NCBI GenBank assembly: GCA_965249625.1
Contig: OZ252246.1
Location: 2,706,236 to 2,770,235, forward strand
DNA length: 64,000 bases
From: Nitrospinales bacterium
GTDB lineage: Bacteria > Nitrospinota > Nitrospinia > Nitrospinales > VA-1
Direction: 5' to 3'
Shown: positions 21,006 to 64,000 of the stretch, piece after piece
How the letters are laid out: each line of letters begins with the position of its first letter
How positions within the stretch are numbered: position 1 is the stretch's first letter
Program-made: the position numbers and the translations under genes
Notes under the pieces: generated by a model
Seen by the model: only the letters and a program-made list of their open reading frames with translations
Databases searched by the model: none
What the model was told of the DNA's origin: nothing

Positions 21006-23576
21006 TCATATAACTATGTAGTTTCTATCTTTCCATAGTTGTTCAATCTTATGCTCATCTTTTAACCGCAATAAGAAATTATGTTTCCATTCATCGTGTT
21101 TTATTAAATGGCTTCCTTTAGGTTCAATGAAAACCTGATAATGAAACGAGGGTTTATTATCTCCAATTAAAAACAATACAAAATCGGGTTCAAATGCACG
21201 TCCATCATCAAAATTAAATAGTTTGAAGTGTCGTTCATTGCGTAGTAAATAAACCTCTGAATATTTTTTATTCAATTGATCTACTATCTTGTCAATATAC
21301 TTGACCAGATGTTTTTCCTCAGAGGTTCCGTAGTTCTCGTTAAATACAAACCAATCCTTGCTGGACAAATCCATATTTAAATCCTGATTGGTTGTTTTGC
21401 TTTGCGCAATACCATATTCCTGATCGCTCTCGCCATCGTTGACAATATTGAGTGTTTTGTCGGTAAAAGTTTGTTTGACCATATAAGGCTTGAATTCCCT
21501 CGTGCCTTTATGCTCAACATTTTCAACCTGTAATTGACGACTCAATTTATCCAGCAAACGGATCACAATATCCAATTTACTCTCCTGGGTTAGATGGTTC
21601 ACCACATCATTAGAACCTTCAACCTCTACTTTGATCCTCCCCAGATAGTCATCAGAGTCAACGAACTCGGACAGGCTGTGCAAATGTGGAAACAGGCGTT
21701 TTAAATTTGAAAACTGATATTCAGGGAATTGGGCCAGTGCTTTTTTGATGACGCAGGAACCAAATGATTTTATAGAATAATCTTTTTGTGTTTTGTTGGC
21801 TTGTCGCTTTCCTTCAAACTCAAACAGGGTTGACGATTGTGAGTAGCCCGATGGCAATGAGATTTTATGTGTCGTTTGAATAAATGAAGCGGTAATACCG
21901 ATCACATCTTCACGCGCATATTTCACCCGCTCATTCTTGAAAACAAAACCCGCCTTATAAAATGGTTTCTCTTTGAAATCTGGTTTTAGTGTTAATTGCA
22001 GCTCACGACTGGTTTTTGCTTTAATACCGATTTCTTCTAAAGCTGTGTGTAACTCTTGAATATATCTGGGATTATAAGCACTGTGATAATATAGCTCCTC
22101 GCACAATTTTAAGTCATGTTCCTTTTGATTATTGAAAATATCATATTTACGCTGATGAAGCGGTTGATCATCTTCTAACCTGAAAGGGCAATATCTCGCG
22201 CCGCGCCCGATTAACTGCGCCTCTGACAAGGTTGTTTTACCCGGTTTGCCAGATTTTGCGTCGCGCGTATCGTACAGGCGTACAATATCAAACAGATTAA
22301 GTACATCCCAGCCTTCGTTCAGCTTATCGACTGCAAAAATAGCACGGTATTCATTATCCTTGTCTTCCAATGTGTTGACCGCAATCTGTTTCCGCACTGA
22401 TTCATCTTTGGAATTGACAGAGATACACTTGTTTTCAGCGAATTCTTCCTGTAATTCTAAAGCCAGATTGTCCAGTGTAATTTGGTTCTCTTCAAAATAG
22501 CGAAACACTCCAGCTAAAACAGCATCCAGATCAGGATTGCTTGCGATTTTTGCCAGATCGTTTCCTTTCAAGCCCTTTATCCGGGCAATAAATTCATCAT
22601 AGAAGGCGTTAGATTCTGCAATTGTTTTTGACTTGAGCAAAATGACAGGTTTTATCAGCCAACCGTGCTTTTCAAATATTTTCCGCCTGAACTGGCTCAA
22701 TAAAATGGCCTGTAATGCTCGTTCAAACGACCGGACTTCGGATTGTAAAACCTTTACCTCTTTAGAATACCCATCCACTCGGAACACCTTTAGCGGATAG
22801 TCAAAAATTATCTTATCCCGGTATTTTTCAATAATCTGTTCATGGGTTAAGTCCATAGTAGCGGTAAATTCCAGCAGGATATTTTGATTGTTGGCCTTGA
22901 ATATTTTTTCAACCGTGGATTCCCAGCTTGTCAAATCAAACATTTCAGATTGATTCAAGTCTCTGGCTCTTTTGGTTTCTGCATTGATGTGATGCGCCTC
23001 ATCCGAAATCAAGACGATTTTCCCGCTTTCAAAGTCATCAAAAGTAATACTGTTTTCTCGCGGCGTATGTAGGCGGGTATGTAAGCCTTGAATGGTTGAA
23101 AACACGATATTTATATCATCAGGGTTGGCCGCTTGGAAATTATCGACCTCCTTGATGCGTATTGACTGATTATTGATTTGTACCGATTCACTAAACAGAT
23201 ATTTTGAAGCAATCGTATTCAGGAAATTATCACGGGTTTTATTGATGATATTGGTACTGTTTACAAAAAACAGGAAATTGCGATAACCCTGATCATATAG
23301 ATAGAGCATCAAACCCGCCATGATCAGCGTTTTACCGCTACCCGTTGCCATGTGAAATAAGGTTTGTGTCGGTACACTCTTCGGGCGAGCGGGATAACTC
23401 TCCATGTAATACTTGAAACGACCAAAGGCTTCAAGCTGGTAGGGCCGCAATTCAAAGTCAGGGTTGAGGTTGCTGGCGATGCAATCGGGAATATTTTGTT
23501 TATAATAATCATAGCCGCCTAAAAATTCTGCGCCTGTGGTTAGTTTTTCGTGGAGCATTTTTTGTTCAGCCATCAA
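21006..23576 (-). CDS. res: Type III restriction enzyme Res subunit (SF2 helicase + C-terminal PD-(D/E)xK nuclease)
   Basis: Motif I MATGSGKT, motif II SDEAHH, later helicase motifs QLIGRGAR. C-terminal EPDFVLFL...VFIEPKG nuclease motif. The first ATG is at 23573 (TTG at 23576). Confidence 0.88.
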   Translation of the reverse strand: MMAEQKMLHEKLTTGAEFLGGYDYYKQNIPDCIASNLNPDFELRPYQLEAFGRFKYYMESYPARPKSVPTQTLFHMATGSGKTLIMAGLMLYLYDQGYRNFLFFVNSTNIINKTRDNFLNTIASKYLFSESVQINNQSIRIKEVDNFQAANPDDINIVFSTIQGLHTRLHTPRENSITFDDFESGKIVLISDEAHHINAETKRARDLNQSEMFDLTSWESTVEKIFKANNQNILLEFTATMDLTHEQIIEKYRDKIIFDYPLKVFRVDGYSKEVKVLQSEVRSFERALQAILLSQFRRKIFEKHGWLIKPVILLKSKTIAESNAFYDEFIARIKGLKGNDLAKIASNPDLDAVLAGVFRYFEENQITLDNLALELQEEFAENKCISVNSKDESVRKQIAVNTLEDKDNEYRAIFAVDKLNEGWDVLNLFDIVRLYDTRDAKSGKPGKTTLSEAQLIGRGARYCPFRLEDDQPLHQRKYDIFNNQKEHDLKLCEELYYHSAYNPRYIQELHTALEEIGIKAKTSRELQLTLKPDFKEKPFYKAGFVFKNERVKYAREDVIGITASFIQTTHKISLPSGYSQSSTLFEFEGKRQANKTQKDYSIKSFGSCVIKKALAQFPEYQFSNLKRLFPHLHSLSEFVDSDDYLGRIKVEVEGSNDVVNHLTQESKLDIVIRLLDKLSRQLQVENVEHKGTREFKPYMVKQTFTDKTLNIVNDGESDQEYGIAQSKTTNQDLNMDLSSKDWFVFNENYGTSEEKHLVKYIDKIVDQLNKKYSEVYLLRNERHFKLFNFDDGRAFEPDFVLFLIGDNKPSFHYQVFIEPKGSHLIKHDEWKHNFLLRLKDEHKIEQLWKDRNYIVI

Positions 23577-24055
23577 TCACCCCCACAAATCTTTTCTAAT
23601 AATGTCCAGCGCGTTTTGCCGCACACTTATATACTGAGATAGAGAAATGCATGAAACCTTATACTCTCTACAGCAACCAACCAGATTCTTCTGCTTATTC
23701 GGATTTTCCTGAGTTACCACAGTTAGCTCTCTTGATTGTGCAAGCGCAATAATCACTGGGTCAGCATTAACTCTGCTTTGTTTTTTCACTAACTTTGGGC
23801 ATCTATTGGCAATATCCGCAATATTGCCTTGTAGCCCAGGTTGCGTAGGAATGAATAAATTGGATTGTTTCTTGACCCACTCGGTCAAGGAGTCATCCAT
23901 TTTTTTTCGAGTTCTTGTTTTACTTCCACTGGAGCCTGGATAAACTGGTTCTCAGTATCTTTTTCGATGAGCTTGAAAACATCTTCAAATGTTGCGGGAG
24001 CATAAATTTCATGCCACCAGGCAATAAACGCGCTGGTATCAAATAGATAGCTCAT
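23577..24055 (-). pseudogene. DUF4411-like PIN-domain protein split by a frameshift in an A8 (T8 on +) run
   Basis: ATG 24055 encodes MSYLFDTSAFIAWWHEIYAP...ELEKK, then terminates after 4 more codons. The tracked ORF 23577-23900 (MDDSLTEWVKK...VNADPVIIALA...) continues in another frame. One extra A at 23900-23907 restores a ~159-aa protein. Confidence 0.6.
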
Positions 24056-25242
24056 GACACCCATCTATGCAGTGGAAATTGCAGCCTTTTGGACAACTTA
24101 CCAAGGTGTTTGAGTTTCATCCCCAATACATCATAAATCTCGGTGGCATTAACACTCCCCTGCTCATAAGCGGCTAATACGGTTTGAGTGAGCAAATTTC
24201 CGCAACGGTCAAGTACCTGCTTATCGGGAGGAGCAGCTCTAACGAAATCGGACCTGTTTTCCAGCCCTTTCAGATAGTGCCGCTTGTATTCATCAAGCAA
24301 CGTATCCAGCGTTGCCTGGCCGATAAGGCCCAGCGCTTTCAATTTCACCGCAATTGCGCTATGGCTTATTTTAAGATTAGAGGCCAGGGCTTGAATAGTT
24401 TCTTCAGGATTGCCGCTATCATTCCATTGAGTTTGAAGATAACCGTCATCAATAAGCACTCCGGAAGCAACGCGATTACACATCGTTTCTACAGGGTCAT
24501 AGTCCGCAGCTTCCTGTCTAAAATTTATTTGGGATACGCCGCTATTATCATCCAGTAACAAATGCGCTAATTCATGCACCAGCGTAAAAATGCGTCGTGC
24601 GGGGCTGTCTGCGGGATTGAGAAGAATTAAGGGGGAGTAGTTATCATAAAGCACCAAACCACTGTATTCATTACGGTCAATTTTGTGTGCCGCGTGGGTT
24701 CCGTTAGCTGAAACAATAACGCGTTTGGCTTCAATCTTTTCTGTCCAATAAGACAGGGCTTGTTTATCGTTTTCCATCTTCGAAATTTTTTGCCTGTCAA
24801 TCTTCAGCCATTGCACGACCCAATCCGCAATATGTTTTACATTTTGTTGACCAGCGAATGAGCCTAACCAATTCAAGGGGTTCGCATTTTCATTTTGCAG
24901 GTATTCCCGCATCCATGATTGGCGTTCACGCGCATCTCGTATGGCAGAGCAAAGCGGGTGGCTGTAAGGCTCTCGGGTTTCGGGGCGGCGAAAATCTTTA
25001 GGTTTCTCCTGTTGCCATTCTTCGGGAATGACTTTCAGGTAAAGAACGGGTAAGGAAACTTTATATTTATCCGCCAGCTTCCTGGCATTGGATAAACCTA
25101 TGCCTTCTTGACCGGATTCCCAGGCGGTTATCTTCTCAACGGATTTATTCAGTTTTTTTGCGGCCTGTTCGATGGACAAGCCGATATCTTCCCGCGCCCA
25201 ACGCAAGGTAGCAGGATGAACAGGGACTGTTTTTATTGCCAT
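24052..25242 (-). CDS. XRE-family HTH fused to ImmA/IrrE-type zinc metallopeptidase (COG2856)
   Basis: N-terminal LSIEQAAKKLNKSVEKITAWESGQ HTH. HEXXH motif in FTLVHELAHLLLDD. ATGA overlap with the downstream DUF4411-like gene. Confidence 0.8.
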   Translation of the reverse strand: MAIKTVPVHPATLRWAREDIGLSIEQAAKKLNKSVEKITAWESGQEGIGLSNARKLADKYKVSLPVLYLKVIPEEWQQEKPKDFRRPETREPYSHPLCSAIRDARERQSWMREYLQNENANPLNWLGSFAGQQNVKHIADWVVQWLKIDRQKISKMENDKQALSYWTEKIEAKRVIVSANGTHAAHKIDRNEYSGLVLYDNYSPLILLNPADSPARRIFTLVHELAHLLLDDNSGVSQINFRQEAADYDPVETMCNRVASGVLIDDGYLQTQWNDSGNPEETIQALASNLKISHSAIAVKLKALGLIGQATLDTLLDEYKRHYLKGLENRSDFVRAAPPDKQVLDRCGNLLTQTVLAAYEQGSVNATEIYDVLGMKLKHLGKLSKRLQFPLHRWVS

Positions 25243-25245
25243 GAC

Positions 25246-27012
25246 CTAACCCCCATAAAACTGCTTATTCAGTTTTTTATCCTCATCCGATATTTGATAA
25301 TCTGCATCGTCAATTTCAGAATAATTGACATAAAGCTGGTTTTTGTCCAGCACGGCAATCAGGAATTGTTTTTGTTCTGCTATTGATAATCCGGCAAACG
25401 CATGGATATTTTTATTGATGGTTTCTGGTTTTATTTTGTGGCTGATAAAGTCGGTATTTTCCATTTCATGCCAGAGGGCAGTCAAGTCTTGGGTGGTCCC
25501 GGCTTGTTCGATTTTATCAATGATGTTGGCATTGTGTTGCGTAAGTTCGCAGTAAGTAAATGAGCCACCGCCTTGCCAGTTTATGCTTTTAGAGATACCT
25601 TTGTTATCCTTCCCTTTCACAACATTATGTAACCTTGGTATTAGCGTTTGAATCCCTCCCTCTAATTGCTCAACACCGATAAATGTTCTGCCTAACTTTA
25701 AACTGGTTACAGCAGTCGTTCCACTACCAAGAAAGAAGTCAAGTACTATATCGCCCGGTTCAGATGCGGCTTCAATGATTATTTTCAACAGACTTTCCGG
25801 CTTGGCTGTATCATAGCTTGCTTCCTTTGAGTTTTTAATTAGAGTATTCCCCCAAACATCTCCTAAAACAACATATTTAGCATCTGGTGCCGTTATGAGT
25901 TTTACAACTTTCTCTCTGTTAAGGTCGATTCTGTCAGAAACATATGTTTTTAGACCTGTTCCAGCTTCTAACTCCCATTCAGCGGGAGTTCTACCCATTC
26001 TACCTCTTGTGTAAAACCACCCCTTCGAATCTTTTTCAATTCTGTTAATAGTGGATGTTTTATATGGTCCTAATGGAGGAACCCAATACCTCGAAACCTT
26101 GTCTTTAGCATAAATAAATATATTCTGATACTCAGTAGGCATTGAAGAACTTTTTGAGTGCGACCTTGAACTCCCGCCCTCTCTCCCTTTATGCCAAATA
26201 ATTTCGTTAACAAAATTTGATCTTCCAAAAATCTCATCCAGCATAACTTTCATGTAGTGAGACTCGTTGTTGTCAACATGTATAAAAATATTTCCATCAA
26301 TACTTAAAATGTTTCTAGCAGTTAGCAGACGACTTCGCATAAAAGTCAACCAGGTAGAATGGTTAAAACTATCATTGTAAGTAAAGCTATCTCGTTCTGT
26401 GTTGAATGGCGGGTCAATATAAATCAGTTTGACCTTACCCGCATACTGCTTTTTCAAACAATGCAAAGCCAGCAGATTGTTGCCCTTGATAATCAAATTA
26501 TCATCAATGCCAATGCTTTCTACTTTATGCTCGCTTTCTTTATCGTATCTCTTGAAACTGGTTAATACCTTCGGGTCAAGCAAGCGGTCAATTTCATCCG
26601 AAGCGAGGGTTTCATTCCAGAATATTTCTTTGCGTTTCTGCTCCTCTTTAGTCTGCCCGCCTTCCAGCACACAATCTTTATACGGCCATGCTAAAACCAC
26701 CTCTCTGCTTTCCGTTAAATATTCCCCGTTCGCCGTTAAACCGATTTTGTTTTTGAATGCGGTGTAGCTGTCGGGTAAAAATTGTTTGTTGCTGACAAAA
26801 CTTTGAAACGCCACCTTATCAAATACCAGTACACCAGCTACATCCTTGAAAAACTGCTTTTTGACTGCCCCACTCCCCAACAACAAGGCAAGCAAACCTT
26901 CATCCATTGCAAGTGCCAGCTCAACAATTTTATTTTTCACCAACTCACCATCAACGACCAGACGCTCATCGCCTTGTAGTGTGGCTTTTAATTCTTCTAA
27001 TAAATTTTGCAT
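25246..27012 (-). CDS. mod: Type III R-M Mod subunit (N6-adenine DNA methyltransferase, beta class)
   Basis: Motif IV LIYIDPPFNT precedes motif I DFFLGSGTTAVTS. The N-terminal region (TAFKNKIGL) is typical of Mod proteins. Confidence 0.88.
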   Translation of the reverse strand: MQNLLEELKATLQGDERLVVDGELVKNKIVELALAMDEGLLALLLGSGAVKKQFFKDVAGVLVFDKVAFQSFVSNKQFLPDSYTAFKNKIGLTANGEYLTESREVVLAWPYKDCVLEGGQTKEEQKRKEIFWNETLASDEIDRLLDPKVLTSFKRYDKESEHKVESIGIDDNLIIKGNNLLALHCLKKQYAGKVKLIYIDPPFNTERDSFTYNDSFNHSTWLTFMRSRLLTARNILSIDGNIFIHVDNNESHYMKVMLDEIFGRSNFVNEIIWHKGREGGSSRSHSKSSSMPTEYQNIFIYAKDKVSRYWVPPLGPYKTSTINRIEKDSKGWFYTRGRMGRTPAEWELEAGTGLKTYVSDRIDLNREKVVKLITAPDAKYVVLGDVWGNTLIKNSKEASYDTAKPESLLKIIIEAASEPGDIVLDFFLGSGTTAVTSLKLGRTFIGVEQLEGGIQTLIPRLHNVVKGKDNKGISKSINWQGGGSFTYCELTQHNANIIDKIEQAGTTQDLTALWHEMENTDFISHKIKPETINKNIHAFAGLSIAEQKQFLIAVLDKNQLYVNYSEIDDADYQISDEDKKLNKQFYGG

Positions 27013-56717: not shown

Positions 56718-57923
56718 ATGATTGATAGCAGTAACAAGACATTGCATCCTGAGTCCAGCGTCACGCTGGAGTTTTTAGTTATTGCTGGCGAGGCCTCCGG
56801 AGACTTGCATGGCTCGAATCTGGTATCGGCTTTAAAGGCTCTTTTGCCGCAGGTCCGTTTCAGCGGAATGGGTGGGTCGAGAATGCGGCAGGCTGGGGTG
56901 GAAACACTCTTTGGTATTGAGCGTATGGGCGCAGTCGGGGTGGTTGAGGTGCTGGGAGAATTCGGTTATTACTACAAGGTCTATCGGACATTGATGAAGG
57001 AAATCGCCTCGCACCGTTATGATGCGGTGATTCTCATCGACTATCCCACACTGAATCTTAGGTTGGCAAAACAGGCACGACGTTTTGATTGCCCGGTATT
57101 CTTTTTCATCAGCCCGCAGATTTGGGCCTGGAGGAAAGGGAGGATCCGGGATATCCGGGAGTCTGTGAGCAAGATGTTCGTCATTCTCCCGTTTGAAGAA
57201 AAACTGTATCTCAATGCCGGGGTGGACGCAGAATTTCTGGGGCATCCGTTTGTGGACATGGTCCATCCTAGCCGGACTCGTGAAGAGAGCCGGGTAAAAT
57301 ATTCCTTGAATTCCAAGATCAAGACTATCGGGCTCTTGCCCGGAAGCAGGATAAACGAGATCAACTCCCTTTTAGATGTGATGGTTCAGGCGGGAGAAAA
57401 AATTCGCGATGAACTGGGTTCCTGCCAGTTTCTTCTTCCCGTTGCCGACTCCATCGATCCCGATCTGATCCGTCAGCGTCTGGGTACCAACCCGCTTGGC
57501 ATCCAATTGGTTGAGGGAGAACCTTATGATGTGATGAATAGTTGTGACATGCTGATCATTGCATCCGGTTCCGCCACGCTGGAAGCGGGAATTCTTGGAT
57601 GCCCCATGGTCATCATCTACAAGTTGAATCCCTTGACCTACTTGCTGGCACAGTTGTTAGTTGATGCCCCATTGGTAGGTCTGGTGAATATTGTGGCGGA
57701 GGAAGAGGTGGTGCCCGAATTAATACAGGATAAAGTGACAGCAGAAAATATCTCTGCCGAAGTGCTTGCAGTTTTGCGGGTTTCTGGAAAGGAACAGGCT
57801 GTTCGCGAGCGTCTTCTTGAAACCAGAAAAACTCTGGGAAAACCTGGGGTCATGAAGGTTGTCGCGAAACGCATTGCCGATTTTATGGATAAATTGAACA
57901 CCAATGAAAAAACTCCTGTTTAA
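56718..57923 (+). CDS. lpxB: lipid-A-disaccharide synthase
   Basis: VIAGEASGDLHGSNL, IDYPTLNLRLA, LLPGSRINEI. Confidence 0.9.
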   Translation: MIDSSNKTLHPESSVTLEFLVIAGEASGDLHGSNLVSALKALLPQVRFSGMGGSRMRQAGVETLFGIERMGAVGVVEVLGEFGYYYKVYRTLMKEIASHRYDAVILIDYPTLNLRLAKQARRFDCPVFFFISPQIWAWRKGRIRDIRESVSKMFVILPFEEKLYLNAGVDAEFLGHPFVDMVHPSRTREESRVKYSLNSKIKTIGLLPGSRINEINSLLDVMVQAGEKIRDELGSCQFLLPVADSIDPDLIRQRLGTNPLGIQLVEGEPYDVMNSCDMLIIASGSATLEAGILGCPMVIIYKLNPLTYLLAQLLVDAPLVGLVNIVAEEEVVPELIQDKVTAENISAEVLAVLRVSGKEQAVRERLLETRKTLGKPGVMKVVAKRIADFMDKLNTNEKTPV

Positions 57924-58548
57924 ATACGCACTCCCGTATCTCCTTTTTGGATTGGTGTATCTCTGGTGCCTGACTCTTCGCTCAAGAAACCTGAACGAGG
58001 AAGAAGAAAACCATTTTAAGGATCTTACCGGACCCTATATCCTCGCCTTGTGGCATGGAAGAATCTTTTACCTGTTTTATTATCTTCGCCGACACCCGGA
58101 TTATTTCCTGCTGATCAGCCCAAGTGAAGATGGCGATCTTCTGGCCCGGCTCGCGCAATTGATGGGCTATTCCGTGATACGGGGATCGACCTTTAAAAAA
58201 GCTGTTCCCGCAGCCCGATCCCTGATTAAAGTTTTGCGCAGGAACCAGAGGATTATTATAATTGCCGATGGTTCCCGCGGCCCGCGATGTGTGGCTCAAT
58301 CGGGATCGGTGCAATTGGCCGGAATAACCGGAGCGCCCATTTTCCCCATGACCTTCGGAGCCCAAAATAAAATGGTCTTAAATAGCTGGGACCGGTTTGT
58401 CATCCCCTGGCCTTTTGCCCGTTGTGCTCTTAACTTCTCATCACCCATTTCTTTGCCCCGCAAATCGTCTGAGCAAAGTATCGAGGAAAAGCGATTGGAG
58501 CTGGAAAGTGCCCTCAATCTTATAACCCAAGCCAGCGACGAAAGCTAA
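57904..58548 (+). CDS. DUF374-family (lysophospholipid acyltransferase-like) protein
   Basis: ILALWHGRIF, ISPSEDGDLLARL...IRGS, DGSRGP. The 20-nt overlap with lpxB indicates the same operon. Confidence 0.8.
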   Translation: MKKLLFKYALPYLLFGLVYLWCLTLRSRNLNEEEENHFKDLTGPYILALWHGRIFYLFYYLRRHPDYFLLISPSEDGDLLARLAQLMGYSVIRGSTFKKAVPAARSLIKVLRRNQRIIIIADGSRGPRCVAQSGSVQLAGITGAPIFPMTFGAQNKMVLNSWDRFVIPWPFARCALNFSSPISLPRKSSEQSIEEKRLELESALNLITQASDES

Positions 58549-58561
58549 AAAACGCTTTCCT

Positions 58562-61348
58562 CTAACTACCGTGATATTCCAGTTTCTCACAAATGTCGGA
58601 AGGCGTAAGCGATACGTCCCATGCCCATTTACCAAACCCGCCGTGCTGGTTTACAGCCTTAACCCACTCATCTAAGGAATTTCTTTTAGCTTGATTCTGT
58701 TCGTTATCCTGTCCCTTAACCTCCAACACAAGCATAGTTTCGTTGGCTAATTTGATTAAGAAATCCGGCCGGTATTTGTGCACGATACCCCTGTAAATAT
58801 AAAGAATTTCAAACCCCAGATGATCGTTCTTGACCCACGAGGAAACATTTTTTTCATCTTTATCAATGCGGAAAGCTTCGACCGCTTCCCATGTGCTGTC
58901 AAATATGCAAAAGTTAATATGGGACCTTTTGGTATGTTCGCAGGCTCTTCCGCTATACCAGGGCAACATATCTCCGGTAGACCGTATCGGTTTTTCCGCG
59001 TCAAATATTGGAGTCAACTGTAATGAATTTTCATAACGAACCGCCTGCAAAACATGGCGGACCAGCCTGCTCATATTCAGGGTGAGCAATACCCGCTTGT
59101 TCATTGCAAGTCGATAAAAAGAAGGGCTGATTTCTATACGGTCCGAGTCAATGAATTTTTCCACTGACCGAATGACCTGGCCCAGCAGGTACTCCCGGTT
59201 TCCCTTCCAGTTTAATTTCATCTGGTCAAATACATCGGCAGAGGTTCTAAATATAATTTTCTGCAATCGGGATTCCAGGCCCAGCTTCTTCAAACTAATT
59301 TCAGTCAATTTAGACACATCCGGTTTGCCGCTGATGACAGGAGCCATCTCTACCAGTTTCATGTTTTCCGTGGCATCCATCTTAAAGGGTTCTACCTTAT
59401 CCAGGTCAAGCTCTAACACAGGTTTGTACACGTGATCGATCCTGATTATATTGGGCCATGAAATTTCATAACATTTCTTCTTCGGAGCCGGTTCAATTTT
59501 GGTCTTGGGCGATGGGGGAGGAGGGGGCGGGCCGTCTCCTTCTTCATGAGGAAGAAAAGTGAATGGGATGCCAAAAATGTTAACATGTTCCGCCTGAAAT
59601 AATTCTGTTATCGGGTCTACTTCATAAGAAGTTCTTCTTAAACCACGCCCTACGACCTGCTCGCATAATAACTGGCTGGAAAATGCCCGCAAGCCCATGA
59701 TATGGGTAACGGTTTTGGTGTCCCATCCCTCTGAAAGCATGCCAACGGAAATTACATTTTGAATCTTTTCGCCGGGCTTCCCGATATTCCCAATCGTGTT
59801 AACTTGCAGGCGAAGCTTTTCCGCCATTTTCTGCTTGGTAAGTTTTGGTTTAGCCCCATCTCCCTCAGAATCCCGATCACTGCCATTGACCGTAACGGGT
59901 TCCTCAACCTCTTCCGCCTTTTTCAATACATTTGAATCAATGTGAAGGGTTAAATCAGGATTTGATAATTCTTCAATATTAATTTTTGATTTATCGAACG
60001 CGTATTTTACTCGTGCAGCCGTTTCGGTTCTGTTGGCTATGGTTATCATTACCGGTGGAACTTTAAACCCATTCTTTTGCCAATCCTGTGCGGTTTCCCT
60101 CCAGTCCAGCCCCAATAAATAATACGCGTTCAATACCAGGTCGGGCAGTGGCTCATGCTCCTCGGCTTTTCTGTTCAAATCATCTTTAACTTCGGATGCC
60201 ATATAAAGATGATATAGCTTTGATTTAAAAGTTTTGGTGTCGGGCAGGGCATCATCACGCACAACCACTCTGGGCGTCTTGACCAGTCCGGACTCTATCG
60301 CATCGTTCAATCCGAAATCGCTGATAACCCATGAAAATAACGCCTCTTCTTGCGCTTTTTTTCCGGAAGGAGCAAAAGGAGTGGCCGAAAGATCGTAGCA
60401 GGTCATGATGCTGCGGGCGTTATGAATGCGGTCCAGGCCTCCTACCCATTTAGTGGCCTCCTCAATATCTTCCTTTTTGATACCCGCCATTTTGGATTCT
60501 GCGGGAACCCGCCAGGCATGATGAGCCTCGTCATTTATTACAAGAATATTACGTGCATTTGCCATGTTGCCCAAAACTTTCCTGACATAGGCCTCATCGC
60601 TTTTGGCACCCCTCTTGTCTACACCCTTTTTCTTTTTAATTTTTTCCGCGTCTTCCCAATTAAGCGTATGCCAGTTATGAATCAGTATTTTCCCCTGTCT
60701 CAGCTTTTCAAGAAGGCCGAGAGGAACAATATTGAACTCGCCATAATAATTGTCTTCACCGGAATGATTTAAAACCCGCAACCGGTTTTTGACCGTCAAA
60801 CCGGGAGCTACGATAAAAATATGTTTTGAGAATCGTTTGTCCTGCGGATAGGTGATTTTGTTGATGACCTGCCAGGCAATCAGCATTGCCATGACAATCG
60901 TTTTTCCGGAACCGGTCGCCATCTTGGAACAAAGGCGCGTGAATGGCCCGCCGTCACCAGGAATGTCAATTCCCTGTTTTTCTGCGGATGAGGCTTCGCG
61001 GAGCCAAATTAATGTTTCTATGGCTTCAATTTGACAGAAAAAGAATTTTCGATACTCCCTTTCCTCCTCATTTTGCCAATGGTCCAGCAACCGTTTGGTT
61101 ATTCCAGTAATCCCGGGATATCCAGCTTCCTTCCATGCTCTGACGCGGGGGCGAATTTTATTGACCAATGGAAGTGGAACAAACTGCCCGGGATCATCAA
61201 AGGATTTAGAACCGGGAGTGGCAACAACATATCCGGCAGGCCGCCGTCCCTCTTCCTTGGAGAACAAGCGGCTTTCACGATCATATTTCCAATAATGAGA
61301 GGGTTCTTCATAAGGAGAGTTGATAATGAGTTGGTCTATGCTTTCCAT
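58562..61348 (-). CDS. Res-like SF2 helicase fused to a C-terminal PD-(D/E)xK nuclease (Type III restriction-like)
   Basis: 928 aa. N-terminal INSPYEEPSHYW...FFFCQIEAIETLIWL, motif I MATGSGKT, motif II INDEAHHAW, motif VI VVGRGLRR, a poly-Pro linker (GPPPPPPSP), and C-terminal RPDFLIKL...LVLEVKG. Confidence 0.85.
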   Translation of the reverse strand: MESIDQLIINSPYEEPSHYWKYDRESRLFSKEEGRRPAGYVVATPGSKSFDDPGQFVPLPLVNKIRPRVRAWKEAGYPGITGITKRLLDHWQNEEEREYRKFFFCQIEAIETLIWLREASSAEKQGIDIPGDGGPFTRLCSKMATGSGKTIVMAMLIAWQVINKITYPQDKRFSKHIFIVAPGLTVKNRLRVLNHSGEDNYYGEFNIVPLGLLEKLRQGKILIHNWHTLNWEDAEKIKKKKGVDKRGAKSDEAYVRKVLGNMANARNILVINDEAHHAWRVPAESKMAGIKKEDIEEATKWVGGLDRIHNARSIMTCYDLSATPFAPSGKKAQEEALFSWVISDFGLNDAIESGLVKTPRVVVRDDALPDTKTFKSKLYHLYMASEVKDDLNRKAEEHEPLPDLVLNAYYLLGLDWRETAQDWQKNGFKVPPVMITIANRTETAARVKYAFDKSKINIEELSNPDLTLHIDSNVLKKAEEVEEPVTVNGSDRDSEGDGAKPKLTKQKMAEKLRLQVNTIGNIGKPGEKIQNVISVGMLSEGWDTKTVTHIMGLRAFSSQLLCEQVVGRGLRRTSYEVDPITELFQAEHVNIFGIPFTFLPHEEGDGPPPPPPSPKTKIEPAPKKKCYEISWPNIIRIDHVYKPVLELDLDKVEPFKMDATENMKLVEMAPVISGKPDVSKLTEISLKKLGLESRLQKIIFRTSADVFDQMKLNWKGNREYLLGQVIRSVEKFIDSDRIEISPSFYRLAMNKRVLLTLNMSRLVRHVLQAVRYENSLQLTPIFDAEKPIRSTGDMLPWYSGRACEHTKRSHINFCIFDSTWEAVEAFRIDKDEKNVSSWVKNDHLGFEILYIYRGIVHKYRPDFLIKLANETMLVLEVKGQDNEQNQAKRNSLDEWVKAVNQHGGFGKWAWDVSLTPSDICEKLEYHGS

Positions 61349-62529
61349 AGTGTTACTTTGAAATGGTCTTCAGTGGATTTAAAATCGGGCTCCCTGCCGT
61401 TGTGCTCCAACATCAATGGAATGACCTTGAGCCGAATGCCCATTCCTTGCTGTTCCAGATAGCCGTAATCTCTGAAAATTCTGGCTGACAATGGATTGCG
61501 TGGTACAGACTCGCCACTTTTTATTTTCTCCACTGTCATACCGTTGGGTAATGCGCCGGGGCTGGTTATTTCAAAGCGGTTGGCATAAATAACAACGCGC
61601 ACATAATCCTGCTTTGTCCAGTCTCGATGAATGAGCGCATTGATGACTAATTCCCTGATTACTTCCTGGGGATAGTCCCATACTCTCTTACGAGTCATGC
61701 CTTCCAGCCTCTCTTGGATAATATATTCTGCAAAATGTATATTTTCATGCAACGCAGTTTCAACAGGGTTAGTTATCTGGTTTGAACCTCGATACTCCAC
61801 CATCGGCATATCAAAGTCTCTATCAAACCGGGTGTTGTAATCCTTGTCTTCCCCATCATAAACGGTGAGTCTTAGTCCAGCCTGTGGCAACCTTACTTGG
61901 GGTGTTTTCGCAAACAGGGCATAGGCAAAATAGCTACAGCTTAAATTTGGAGACTCGCCCACCAGAAAGCCACGGTCAATAAGCAACTTTTGCAAATCAT
62001 CTACTGACGGATGTTTTAGGACATTGTAGAAATATTCTTTGTAGCGTCGTTTATCCAAATCTGCAATTGTGGAACCATGTACAGGAAATTTTTCTGCCGA
62101 CAGAAGACCGCCGGTATCAAACAGCCTGGCTTGTTGTTCGCGTGTTGCCAGTTGGCAGGTGTTCCCATAACGAACATAGATATCCTCGCGGTCGTTGAGT
62201 CTGAGCACATATGGCTTGTTATTACCCTGGGGAATTTTCACAACTGCTATTTTTTTGTCTTTAAAGGTGACTTCTTCATAGTCTGGCAAGATAAAAGGGT
62301 GAACATATCTACCGACAACCGTATCCATCAACCATTCGTGAAAGTTATCTCTTTGAATGCCACTGACGCTGCCATCGTCTTCAATACCCATTAAAATTTG
62401 ACCGCCATTCATATTGGCAAAGCCAACTATTTCTTTCGCTAACGACTCAGGGCGGATATTATCCTGCTTATATTCAAGCTTGGGACCCTCTCCCTGGTTA
62501 AGAAGTTCTAATAGTTCACTTTTTAACAT
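61336..62529 (-). CDS. AlbA_2/Schlafen-type DNA-binding domain + HATPase_c_4-like protein (COG2865 family)
   Basis: N-terminal EGPKLEYKQ...LAKEIVGFANMNGGQILMGIEDDG (AlbA_2). C-terminal EVIRELVINALIHRDW...ITSPG (GHKL-like). 13-nt overlap with the downstream helicase gene. Confidence 0.8.
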   Translation of the reverse strand: MLKSELLELLNQGEGPKLEYKQDNIRPESLAKEIVGFANMNGGQILMGIEDDGSVSGIQRDNFHEWLMDTVVGRYVHPFILPDYEEVTFKDKKIAVVKIPQGNNKPYVLRLNDREDIYVRYGNTCQLATREQQARLFDTGGLLSAEKFPVHGSTIADLDKRRYKEYFYNVLKHPSVDDLQKLLIDRGFLVGESPNLSCSYFAYALFAKTPQVRLPQAGLRLTVYDGEDKDYNTRFDRDFDMPMVEYRGSNQITNPVETALHENIHFAEYIIQERLEGMTRKRVWDYPQEVIRELVINALIHRDWTKQDYVRVVIYANRFEITSPGALPNGMTVEKIKSGESVPRNPLSARIFRDYGYLEQQGMGIRLKVIPLMLEHNGREPDFKSTEDHFKVTLWKA

Positions 62530-62544
62530 TTCATGCCCGCATCC

Positions 62545-64000
62545 TTAAAAACCATACTTGTCTTTGCGTATATTAAAAGCCGCTTTGCCGCCTTCCAGTA
62601 TTTCTGCTGCCTGACTACTCACTTCTGGTTTATCAATAGATCCGATATTTTTAACCGATCCCGTGCCCTGGTTACTATCTAACACAACGATTAACTCGGC
62701 ATCACCAAACACGGGGATATTGGCATTGTGAGTGGCAAACAAAAATTGCCGGTTGGTTTTGAATTGCCTTAAATCCTGCACAATGCGTTCGGCGATAAAG
62801 GCATTGTCCAAATTATCTTCTGGCTGATCGATAATCAAAGGATCATCGCAGCTTAATAATAGTAAATTTAAGATAGCCGTACATTTTTGACCAGTGGACA
62901 GATCTTCAAGCGGTACATAGCGAACGTCATTGCCCTCGTGTGCTGTATTTAGCTCAATGTTAACTTTGTCTTTTAATTCAATCTCTTCTAATTCCAATCG
63001 CTTAGATAAATTTAAACTGATTAGTTTTGCAACAGTACCTTGAGCCAATCCGGATGCTTTGTACTCATCCATGAAAGCACTTGCATTTTGTTTCTTTATC
63101 CATTGTGACCATTGCACTAAATCCAATTCTATGTTGTCCTGTTCCAGCCATTGTATTTTGGACCGACCAATGCCGTCAATATCGTGCAGAAAGTCTTTTA
63201 AAGATGCCGAGTTCCCACAACGCTCCACGCTGATTTTCACCTTGCCCTTTAAGTCCCCTTTGTTCAATTTTTGTACTGATTTATTCATAGCTTCATAATG
63301 ATTAAATGCAGTAGTACGATACTCTTCCAGCAGGGTCATTCTCTCTAACTCAATCTCAGTCATGATTCTTTGCTGATTTTTGTGTGCCTGTTTTTGTTTT
63401 TTTATCAGCGTCAATTGTTTAATGATGGTTGTATATCCCTCCCCTAATTCTTTGCCGGTCTTACCCGCTTGCTCGGGCAGTTGGGCAATCGCCTGATTTA
63501 ATGCGTCTCGAATCTTGTTTGATGATTCTTGCCATGCCGGTTGCATGGCTTGATAGCTGCTCCTGGCTTTTTGTAGTGCTTTGCTGGCTTGTTCAGCTAG
63601 ATTCCCGAGTGTTTTTTGTAAATCCTCAAGAATTTTCCGTGTTTCGACTATGCTTGCCTTATTGGGAAGCTCTGCAAGATGAGTGTCTTGTAAAAACGCC
63701 AAATCAAATATTTCTTGATAATCCATTATCCATTTTTCAACCAAATCAAACTGTTCTTTAATTTTTATTTGAATGGCCTTTTCTCTTTCAAGCAGTGGGG
63801 TGTTTTTTAATTTATCCTCTATGCCTAGCTTCCTAAATTGCGTCGCTTTTTCTTTAAGTGTATATTCTTTGCTGACTGCTTCATCTAACAGTTCAAACTC
63901 CTCATTCGCTCTTATCAATTTATCTCTGTTGATTTCTAACATGCGTTTAATTTTAGCCATGTCGGCATCAAATTGAGAACTGTCTGGTAGAAAGTTATTG
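62545..64000 (-). CDS. SMC/RecF/SbcC-like ABC ATPase, C-terminal ~485 aa (5' end beyond the window)
   Basis: Long coiled-coil region, then signature LSTGQK and Walker B/D-loop LIIDQPEDNLD, and FATHNANIPVFGDAELIVV. The frame stays open upstream of the tracked ATG (63960) to the window edge, and no Walker A is seen, so the N-terminus lies outside. Confidence 0.75.
   Translation of the reverse strand, partial: NNFLPDSSQFDADMAKIKRMLEINRDKLIRANEEFELLDEAVSKEYTLKEKATQFRKLGIEDKLKNTPLLEREKAIQIKIKEQFDLVEKWIMDYQEIFDLAFLQDTHLAELPNKASIVETRKILEDLQKTLGNLAEQASKALQKARSSYQAMQPAWQESSNKIRDALNQAIAQLPEQAGKTGKELGEGYTTIIKQLTLIKKQKQAHKNQQRIMTEIELERMTLLEEYRTTAFNHYEAMNKSVQKLNKGDLKGKVKISVERCGNSASLKDFLHDIDGIGRSKIQWLEQDNIELDLVQWSQWIKKQNASAFMDEYKASGLAQGTVAKLISLNLSKRLELEEIELKDKVNIELNTAHEGNDVRYVPLEDLSTGQKCTAILNLLLLSCDDPLIIDQPEDNLDNAFIAERIVQDLRQFKTNRQFLFATHNANIPVFGDAELIVVLDSNQGTGSVKNIGSIDKPEVSSQAAEILEGGKAAFNIRKDKYGF

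Follow-up and report, generated by a model that had tools for sequence, protein, structure and literature searches.

The locus described here lies at the end of a 64,000-nucleotide (nt) stretch of DNA from a Nitrospinales bacterium (contig OZ252246.1 of assembly GCA_965249625.1, positions 2,706,236 to 2,770,235; hereafter the window), where three closely packed genes on the minus strand run up to, and beyond, the window edge. The last of these in the direction of transcription, res (58562–61348), encodes a Type III-like restriction endonuclease of 928 amino acids (aa) belonging to the BPTD_3080 family (NF046055). It is preceded by a trlG-like gene (61336–62529), whose 397-aa product carries the domain pair PF04326 and PF13749 known as a "Schlatpase", and this in turn by the 3′ part of trlF (62545–64000), a fragment comprising codons 415–898 of the 898 codons of a TrlF-family ATPase. 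By open reading frame (ORF) calling, the trlF frame contains no stop over at least 484 codons, from 62545 up to the window end; the window stops 1,241 nt short of the trlF start, which is expected near coordinate 65241. The trlF and trlG genes are separated by 15 nt (62530–62544), and trlG and res overlap by 13 nt (61336–61348). Beyond res, a spacer of 13 nt (58549–58561) lies between its stop codon and that of a convergent DUF374 gene on the plus strand (57904–58548). This spacer is the 3′ boundary of an inserted restriction-modification (R-M) operon, and the same res/DUF374 junction was also present in two other loci, L001 and L087. An earlier note, made from the letters of the window, had described three minus-strand ORFs with these spacings; recomputed coordinates showed all of them to be real, and the thousands of homologues retrieved indicated that the genes are not chance ORFs. 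Taken as a whole, the best explanation, to which we assign a probability of roughly 80%, is that four co-directional genes, mod-trlF-trlG-res, form one operon of which the window covers the 3′ 5.4 kb, and that in this operon an R-M core carries the TrlF/TrlG pair (TrlFG) as a guest. A scan of the window operon for terminators and promoters gave nothing above chance level.

The Res protein matched the NCBIfam model NF046055 with 1089.6 bits (cut-off 800) over residues 5–924, corresponding to model positions 2–967 of 970, and Pfam ResIII with E = 8e-9. Its architecture consists of an N-terminal domain, a superfamily 2 (SF2) helicase core, a poly-proline linker and a C-terminal PD-(D/E)xK motif. 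The motifs KMATGSGKT, NDEAHH, GPPPPPPSP and RPDFLIKL...LVLEVKGQ, on which the first description of this gene was based, were all found in the translation, and the domain readings made at that stage for the three genes were upheld by matches to Pfam and NCBIfam hidden Markov models. In an alignment of 13 Res-family sequences (A1), Walker A (K142–T150), the DEAH box (D273–H276) and motif VI (Q564–R572) were invariant, as was the nuclease motif P861-D862...E876-x-K878. Comparison with hhalign matched the helicase core to that of the other Type III Res in the window at 96% probability. A protein search returned P0001, identical to Res and located on a 2.86-Mb contig, and more than 8000 matches to the family, which spans many bacterial phyla as well as some archaea at 60–70% identity. 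As far as family membership goes, these sequence matches make the R-M reading of the core well supported. The poly-proline run, DGPPPPPPxPKTKIEP (window 59500–59530, residues ~605–614), was conserved family-wide, with P609, P611, P612 and P614 invariant in A1.

The product of the trlG-like gene matched SLFN_AlbA_2 (PF04326; 3e-23) over residues 14–128 and the GHKL-type ATPase domain HATPase_c_4 (PF13749; 6e-21) over residues 310–394. Residues E14, E19, K21 and E50/D51, together with the N and G boxes of the GHKL domain, were kept across 47 TrlF-linked homologues, G-E14, E19-x-K21 and E50-D51 being at least 90% conserved among them. The acidic residues were matched to the catalytic E17/D22 of CRISPR-associated Schlafen proteins (Cash, of type III CRISPR) on the basis of motif position and not of a structural alignment, and the Schlafen/AlbA_2 part is a predicted RNase domain. 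The nearest solved sequence was 3LMM, an AlbA_2/HATPase protein of no assigned role. The designation of TrlG as RecG is an old misannotation that has been dealt with before (PMC7554251).

Of TrlF, the window encodes a coiled coil and the ABC head's C-terminal half (LSTGQK, IIDQPED, H-loop); the PHP-like domain at the N-terminus and Walker A are encoded outside it. The signature LSTGQK, the Walker B motif IIDQPEDNLD and THNANIPVFGDAE, as previously read from this gene, were recovered from the translation. The fragment matched Pfam AAA_21 and, with 260 bits over model positions 462–944, NF045780, a score that is explained by half of the TrlF protein missing from the window; matches to the Spaf_1101 and anti-phage Ppl models were weaker. 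The 898-aa protein P0123 was 100% identical to the fragment over its residues 415–898 and shared its contig with P0001, indicating that P0123 is the complete product of this gene. Against NF045780, P0123 scored 494.3 bits (cut-off 350) over residues 9–897. It also aligned to the Ppl model NF042955 from residue 68 to 892, at 150.6 bits with a cut-off of 1000; judged by sequence, TrlF is a homologue of Ppl over its full length, yet not a member of the Ppl family. The AlphaFold model of P0123 (predicted local distance difference test score, pLDDT, of 82) showed an alpha/beta domain at the N-terminus, an ABC head split in two, and a long coiled coil of the antiparallel type, and so agreed with the former reading of the gene as SMC-like with a coiled coil; the best PDB matches to this model in Foldseek were the heads of SMC, MukB, JetC, Rad50 and RecN. 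The name TrlF derives from the temperature restriction locus trlR-trlF-trlG of Photorhabdus laumondii (Hapeshi et al. 2020, PMC7554251).

No mod gene for this operon lies within the window, as the earlier note had observed, the reason being that the window ends inside trlF. Of the alternatives that had been offered, a Type III variant with its mod upstream of 64000 was favoured by a Mod on the same contig and by synteny with L001, the corresponding locus of a sister genome. L001 encodes an N6_N4_Mtase of 802 aa (Mod; L001 3560–5968, outside the window), TrlF (898 aa), TrlG (399 aa) and Res (928 aa), followed by the convergent DUF374 gene, LpxB, LpxI and the rest of the lpx neighbourhood, as in the window. 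Its Res (P0003) was 88% identical to that of the window, its TrlF scored 505 bits on NF045780, and its Mod matched PF01555; the 143 bp between mod and trlF contained no called gene. A search with the L001 Mod returned P0243, an intact Mod of 815 aa with 75% identity to the query, which exact look-up placed on the same 2,862,702-bp contig as TrlF, TrlG and Res. P0243 matched the PADLOC model MTase_III (PDLC03632) at 8e-144, and DPPY at 151 precedes DPTCGSGTT at ~455, which is the beta-class motif order; Mod is thus assigned, from its sequence, as a beta-class N6/N4 methyltransferase of the Type III class. Because of the synteny with L001 and the presence of all four genes on one contig, mod probably adjoins trlF in the source genome as well. 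Between P0243 and the L001 Mod, identity dropped to 22–42% over residues 241–440 and was 85–98% in the flanks. A divergent centre between near-identical flanks points to a swapped target-recognition region, and would imply that the swap between the two sister genomes was recent and that their methylation specificities differ. Some Mods of the family (L085 4357–7362; P0255, P0258–P0260) had a length of 1000–1300 aa and were fused to DUF559/MTES_1575, a Vsr-like endonuclease.

The association between Res and Mod was quantified in a census of 80 Res loci from species-representative genomes, 7 of which did not have enough upstream sequence. A Mod homologue was present upstream on the same strand in 70 of the 80 loci, or 70 of the 73 informative ones, with two or three informative loci being without Mod; TrlF and TrlG occupied the gap in a single locus of the 80 (L034). 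The coupling of Res is with Mod and not with TrlFG. The distance between Mod and Res was 180–211 bp, with no insert, in 24 of the 70 loci and 357–5564 bp in the other 46. Inserts were co-oriented with the flanking genes and comprised AAA_15/AAA_21 ATPases with small partners (11 loci), HepT with MNT, PIN, CAP12/Pycsar-type TIR, Uma2, SIR2 with HerA, Fic, HTH-M78, Bro-N, DUF5131, an IS66 transposase, OLD-like ATPases and a lone Schlatpase (examples of gap coordinates: L056 7127–10803, L032 7072–9931, L018 7492–9966). The mod-res gap of BPTD_3080-type systems is therefore a variable cargo slot. Among close relatives of the window Res, one with 86% identity abuts its Mod at a 16-nt gap on an integrase-linked element, and one with 77% identity has MNT-HepT in the gap; such divergent gap content indicates that the cargo turns over fast. 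The gap of L056 held both SIR2 with HerA and MNT with HepT. Some gap ORFs had no Pfam match and may be effectors (L015 8582–9961, L057 8428–9276, L005 281–1192, L032 9350–9931).

These counts bear on the other alternative that had been raised for the locus, namely a self-contained, modification-independent trio in which an SMC-like ATPase, a Schlafen-type sensor and a helicase-nuclease work together. The tight packing and common orientation of the three genes, with their 15-nt gap and 13-nt overlap, agree with such a unit, and so does L176, where TrlF-TrlG-Res occurred without a Mod in the 7 kb of upstream sequence retrieved. A Mod is nevertheless encoded on the same contig and stands directly upstream in the syntenic L001, the frequency with which Res is accompanied by Mod far exceeds that with which it is accompanied by TrlFG, a BPTD-type Res was found in only 1 of 55 metagenome loci with TrlFG, and near-identical Res genes occur without TrlFG. 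The trio did not stand as a conserved unit either, since close Res relatives are without guests or have MNT-HepT instead. The earlier note had also been unable to match the genes to a named system. In a PADLOC search, the trlG-like gene and res were indeed given no system name and had weak domain-level matches only; the parts are nonetheless named, as the BPTD_3080 family endonuclease, the TrlF family ATPase and TrlG/Schlatpase. Among the findings that the note had listed as counting against a new system, an adjacent mod was obtained, although by inference from synteny, and the failure of the three genes to co-occur elsewhere was observed to a large extent. A trio acting independently of modification is hence highly improbable, and a new three-gene system of this kind was rejected on the basis of the Mod on the contig, the coupling of Res to Mod and the named parts. 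The locus is a BPTD_3080-type R-M operon with the already-named TrlF/TrlG accessory pair, and all of its components are of known kinds.

The distribution of TrlFG was followed in a second census, of 80 metagenome loci centred on TrlF, 73 of which had room for TrlG downstream; TrlG lay directly downstream in 55 of these 73. In 13 loci TrlFG was located in BREX-1, between pglX and pglZ, where the downstream 780-aa protein was PglZ type B (883 bits). Further metagenome neighbourhoods were those of Type I R-M (7 loci), a position downstream of classical Type III mod-res (4 loci), a position beside a DUF499 system (1 locus) and the BPTD-type mod-res gap (1 locus, L090). On a Citrobacter IncC plasmid the order was hsdM-hsdS-TrlF-"RNA-binding domain-containing protein"-hsdR, and TrlF without its partner was found on Staphylococcus and Xanthomonas plasmids. 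L179 contained a stand-alone TrlFG with a TrlF 60% identical to that of L001. A search of 2.9 million viral contigs gave only one full-length TrlF. TrlF and TrlG form a two-gene module of their own that moves horizontally. Downstream of the closest relatives of the window TrlF (65–69% identical) there was always a TrlG and a BPTD-type Res; L177 and L178 also had Mod in front, giving the order mod-trlF-trlG-res in unrelated chromosomal neighbourhoods, and TrlF-TrlG-Res also occurred in L176, L034 and L090. In L177, TrlG was 80% identical to that of the window and Res only 57%, indicating that module and backbone are of different history. The TrlFG module has repeatedly ended up in the same slot of divergent backbones. 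In the window operon, the G+C content over trlF (0.39–0.42) was lower than over res (0.44–0.47), which fits a guest origin of the trlF region.

Two of these loci had features of their own. In L179 (11755–12956), TrlG was present as separate AlbA_2 and HATPase_c_4 ORFs, for which a frameshift, a pseudogene or a natural split are possible explanations. In L176 (2811–6857), two more AAA_15/AAA_21 ATPase genes and a small partner preceded TrlF-TrlG-Res, with a ThiF/JAB/Multi_ubiq cluster just upstream; this may be an array of several guests in the mod-res slot.

We propose a scheme for the operon in which the enzymatic activities, the trigger and the functional coupling of TrlFG to R-M are inferred. 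Mod would methylate the host DNA and supply the sequence specificity, and Res would cut unmethylated incoming DNA by means of its SF2 ATPase and C-terminal PD-(D/E)xK nuclease. In Type III systems, Res depends on Mod to recognise its site, and cleavage requires ATP and a pair of unmethylated sites in inverse orientation. Judging from related Schlafen systems, TrlFG most likely acts as a second-line abortive module that cleaves tRNAs. The ABC ATPase TrlF, the likely sensor or regulator, would sense an infection-associated cue in the form of DNA or protein; GHKL-driven, ATP-dependent oligomerisation of TrlG would then assemble the active Schlafen RNase, and cleavage of tRNAs by this assembly would stop growth. 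By analogy with SLFN-pAgo and Cash, TrlG is expected to be a tRNase gated by ATP. The GHKL domain of SLFN-pAgo drives an ATP-dependent tetramerisation that assembles a tRNA-cleaving Schlafen nuclease; the same study named the AlbA_2 and GHKL pair the "Schlatpase" supra-domain, counted it in 60,692 proteins and reported stand-alone Schlatpases inside R-M operons (bioRxiv 2026.05.29.728809). Cash proteins cleave tRNA (PMC13462974). Compared with these effectors, TrlG has exactly the Schlatpase pair and conserves the acidic catalytic residues, but is without Csx15, Argonaute or NACHT sensor, its putative sensor being a separate SMC-like ATPase.

The recurrence of TrlFG next to methyltransferases allows a more specific proposal, for which there are parallels. 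PrrC in the EcoprrI Type Ic operon and PARIS (AriA/AriB) are abortive tRNA-targeting modules with an ABC-type ATPase sensor that are tied to restriction; their effectors are an anticodon nuclease or a TOPRIM protein, as opposed to the Schlafen domain of TrlG. In a similar manner, TrlFG might be wired as a sentinel to the methylation-based system of its host operon, being silenced by, or monitoring, Mod/Res, HsdMSR or PglX/PglZ and being freed by phage inhibition of these or by the DNA ends that restriction produces. The likeness is a lead and does not imply that TrlFG binds or monitors Mod/Res. What speaks for such wiring is that TrlFG recurs in four classes of methyltransferase operon (BPTD-type, classical Type III, Type I and BREX-1) and that in three of these (BPTD-type, Type I and BREX-1) it is flanked by the methylase gene on one side and the gene for the nuclease or phosphatase on the other. 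Moreover, five of five TrlF relatives with at least 65% identity have a BPTD-type Res downstream, these Res being 57–88% identical to one another. Schlafen-ATPase genes have been described in surveys as backup effectors of BREX and R-M (PMC12839542, PMC13462974): a BREX survey assigned this role to Schlafen-histidine-kinase-like proteins in at least 1017 taxa (PMC12839542), and more than half of the defence-associated prokaryotic Schlafens were linked to R-M and other nucleases (PMC13462974). On the other hand, TrlFG also occurs without nearby R-M, both in L179 and in the Photorhabdus trlRFG locus, TrlF occurs alone on plasmids, and the same slot takes unrelated cargo, including a transposase, showing that co-location does not require coupling. 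We therefore consider this wiring possible but doubtful. Equally tentative is a wider formulation, in which TrlFG would be a guard of methylation-based immunity that licenses the Schlafen-GHKL tRNase when the first line is inhibited or overwhelmed, and in which the gap would also be a site, bounded by conserved flanks, at which backup effectors of this kind are exchanged through homologous recombination.

The closest described counterpart of the guest pair is trlRFG of Photorhabdus, which has the same two proteins in the same order and in tight linkage. Its TrlF is annotated as a histidinol-phosphatase-like ATPase, and its TrlG has AlbA_2 at residues 14–128 and HATPase_c_4, as in the window. 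In contrast to the window pair, which is embedded in an R-M operon, trlRFG stands alone between polA and dsbA and includes a small regulator, trlR, conserved in few taxa only (PMC7554251), whereas none was visible upstream of trlF in the syntenic L001. Point mutations in trlG permit Photorhabdus to grow at 36 °C (PMC7554251); that mutating trlG lifts the growth arrest is in keeping with a toxic effector. This temperature restriction is also the only experimental phenotype known, and could be taken to mean that TrlFG has no immune function here and instead regulates growth in response to stress or temperature, or that it is a selfish addiction module which hitch-hikes in a recombination-prone gap. 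The classical toxin-antitoxin pairs and the insertion sequence element carried by the same slot, as well as the near absence of full-length TrlF from the viral contigs, are compatible with this. We regard a non-immune role as unlikely: TrlF is homologous along its whole length to Ppl, an anti-phage protein by its NCBIfam name; in three prokaryotic defence systems that have been characterised, the effector is a Schlafen domain; and TrlFG is strongly enriched inside defence operons. Ppl (NF042955, PADLOC PDLC02208) resembles TrlF in its PHP-like N-terminus and its ABC ATPase with coiled coil; it is listed as a single gene, whereas TrlF mostly (55/73) has a Schlafen-GHKL partner.

Several observations weigh against the interpretation of the locus as a Type III-like R-M operon with a defensive TrlFG guest. 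As to the operon structure, the adjacency of mod and trlF in the source genome is a deduction from synteny and from the shared contig. As to Res, a profile search against PDB sequences gave no match, the PADLOC model REase_III matched only over 43 residues (530–572), and a PRK15483-type Res (L091) could be aligned only over motif VI (47 columns). Because of this partial alignment to classical Type III Res models, "Type III-like" is a class-level call; by its sequence Res appears to belong to a distinct family outside the classical EcoP15I/PRK15483-type models. The C-terminus of Res had no match to a nuclease domain in Pfam, the AlphaFold2 model computed from the 13-sequence alignment reached a pLDDT of 39 overall and ~70–80 over residues 830–928, and it is the invariant motif that suggests the nuclease fold. 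As to TrlF, PHP was a weak match in Pfam (E = 0.15 in one TrlF homologue), and the PDB profile search and Foldseek retrieved only heads of the SMC/Rad50 type and no PHP; the PHP assignment of the N-terminus is a tentative one, drawn from Ppl homology and from the annotation of others. The first strand of the PHP-like domain of P0123 (residues 12–20) reads FYKCALQVN and was invariant in 20 TrlF homologues. Canonical PHP domains have an HxH metal-binding motif where TrlF reads CALQVN, and the domain may thus be catalytically altered. As to function, temperature-dependent growth restriction is the phenotype known for TrlFG and its anti-phage role is a prediction by analogy, and no trlF mutants were obtained in the Photorhabdus screen (PMC7554251).

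Compared with other R-M systems of the BPTD_3080 family (NF046055), the window operon is alike in its full-length Res match, its beta-class Mod, the probable position of mod upstream of res on one strand and the variable target-recognition region. It would differ in having ~4 kb of guests between mod and res, where about 16–210 bp are found in approximately one third of the members. The family itself is distant in sequence from EcoP15I-type Res. With a named restriction family and a named accessory pair, the locus is not a new defence system and its interest is modest in that respect. It is, together with six further loci, a clean example of TrlFG embedded in a Type III-like R-M operon, and it illustrates that the mod-res gap of a widespread R-M family is a cargo slot which turns over between backbones with Res 77–91% identical. 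The remaining interest lies in the biochemistry of TrlF and TrlG and in the cargo-slot behaviour of the gap, and could guide work on the activation of bacterial Schlafen-GHKL proteins and the mining of mod-res gaps for new effectors.

A second R-M locus in the window (21006–27012), also on the minus strand, is a classical Type III system with a layout like the mod-guests-res order of the operon described above. By Pfam domains, it comprises a Mod (TypeIII_RM_meth and N6_N4_Mtase; 25246–27012), a guest with HTH_3 and Peptidase_M78 (ImmA/IrrE-like; 24052–25242) and a Res (ResIII; 21006–23576). A further guest region (23577–24064) consists, according to the ORF calls, of a small ORF that is seemingly split (23885–24064 and 23577–23900). 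The parallel that the earlier note had drawn between the two loci was apt, as here too guest genes lie between mod and res.

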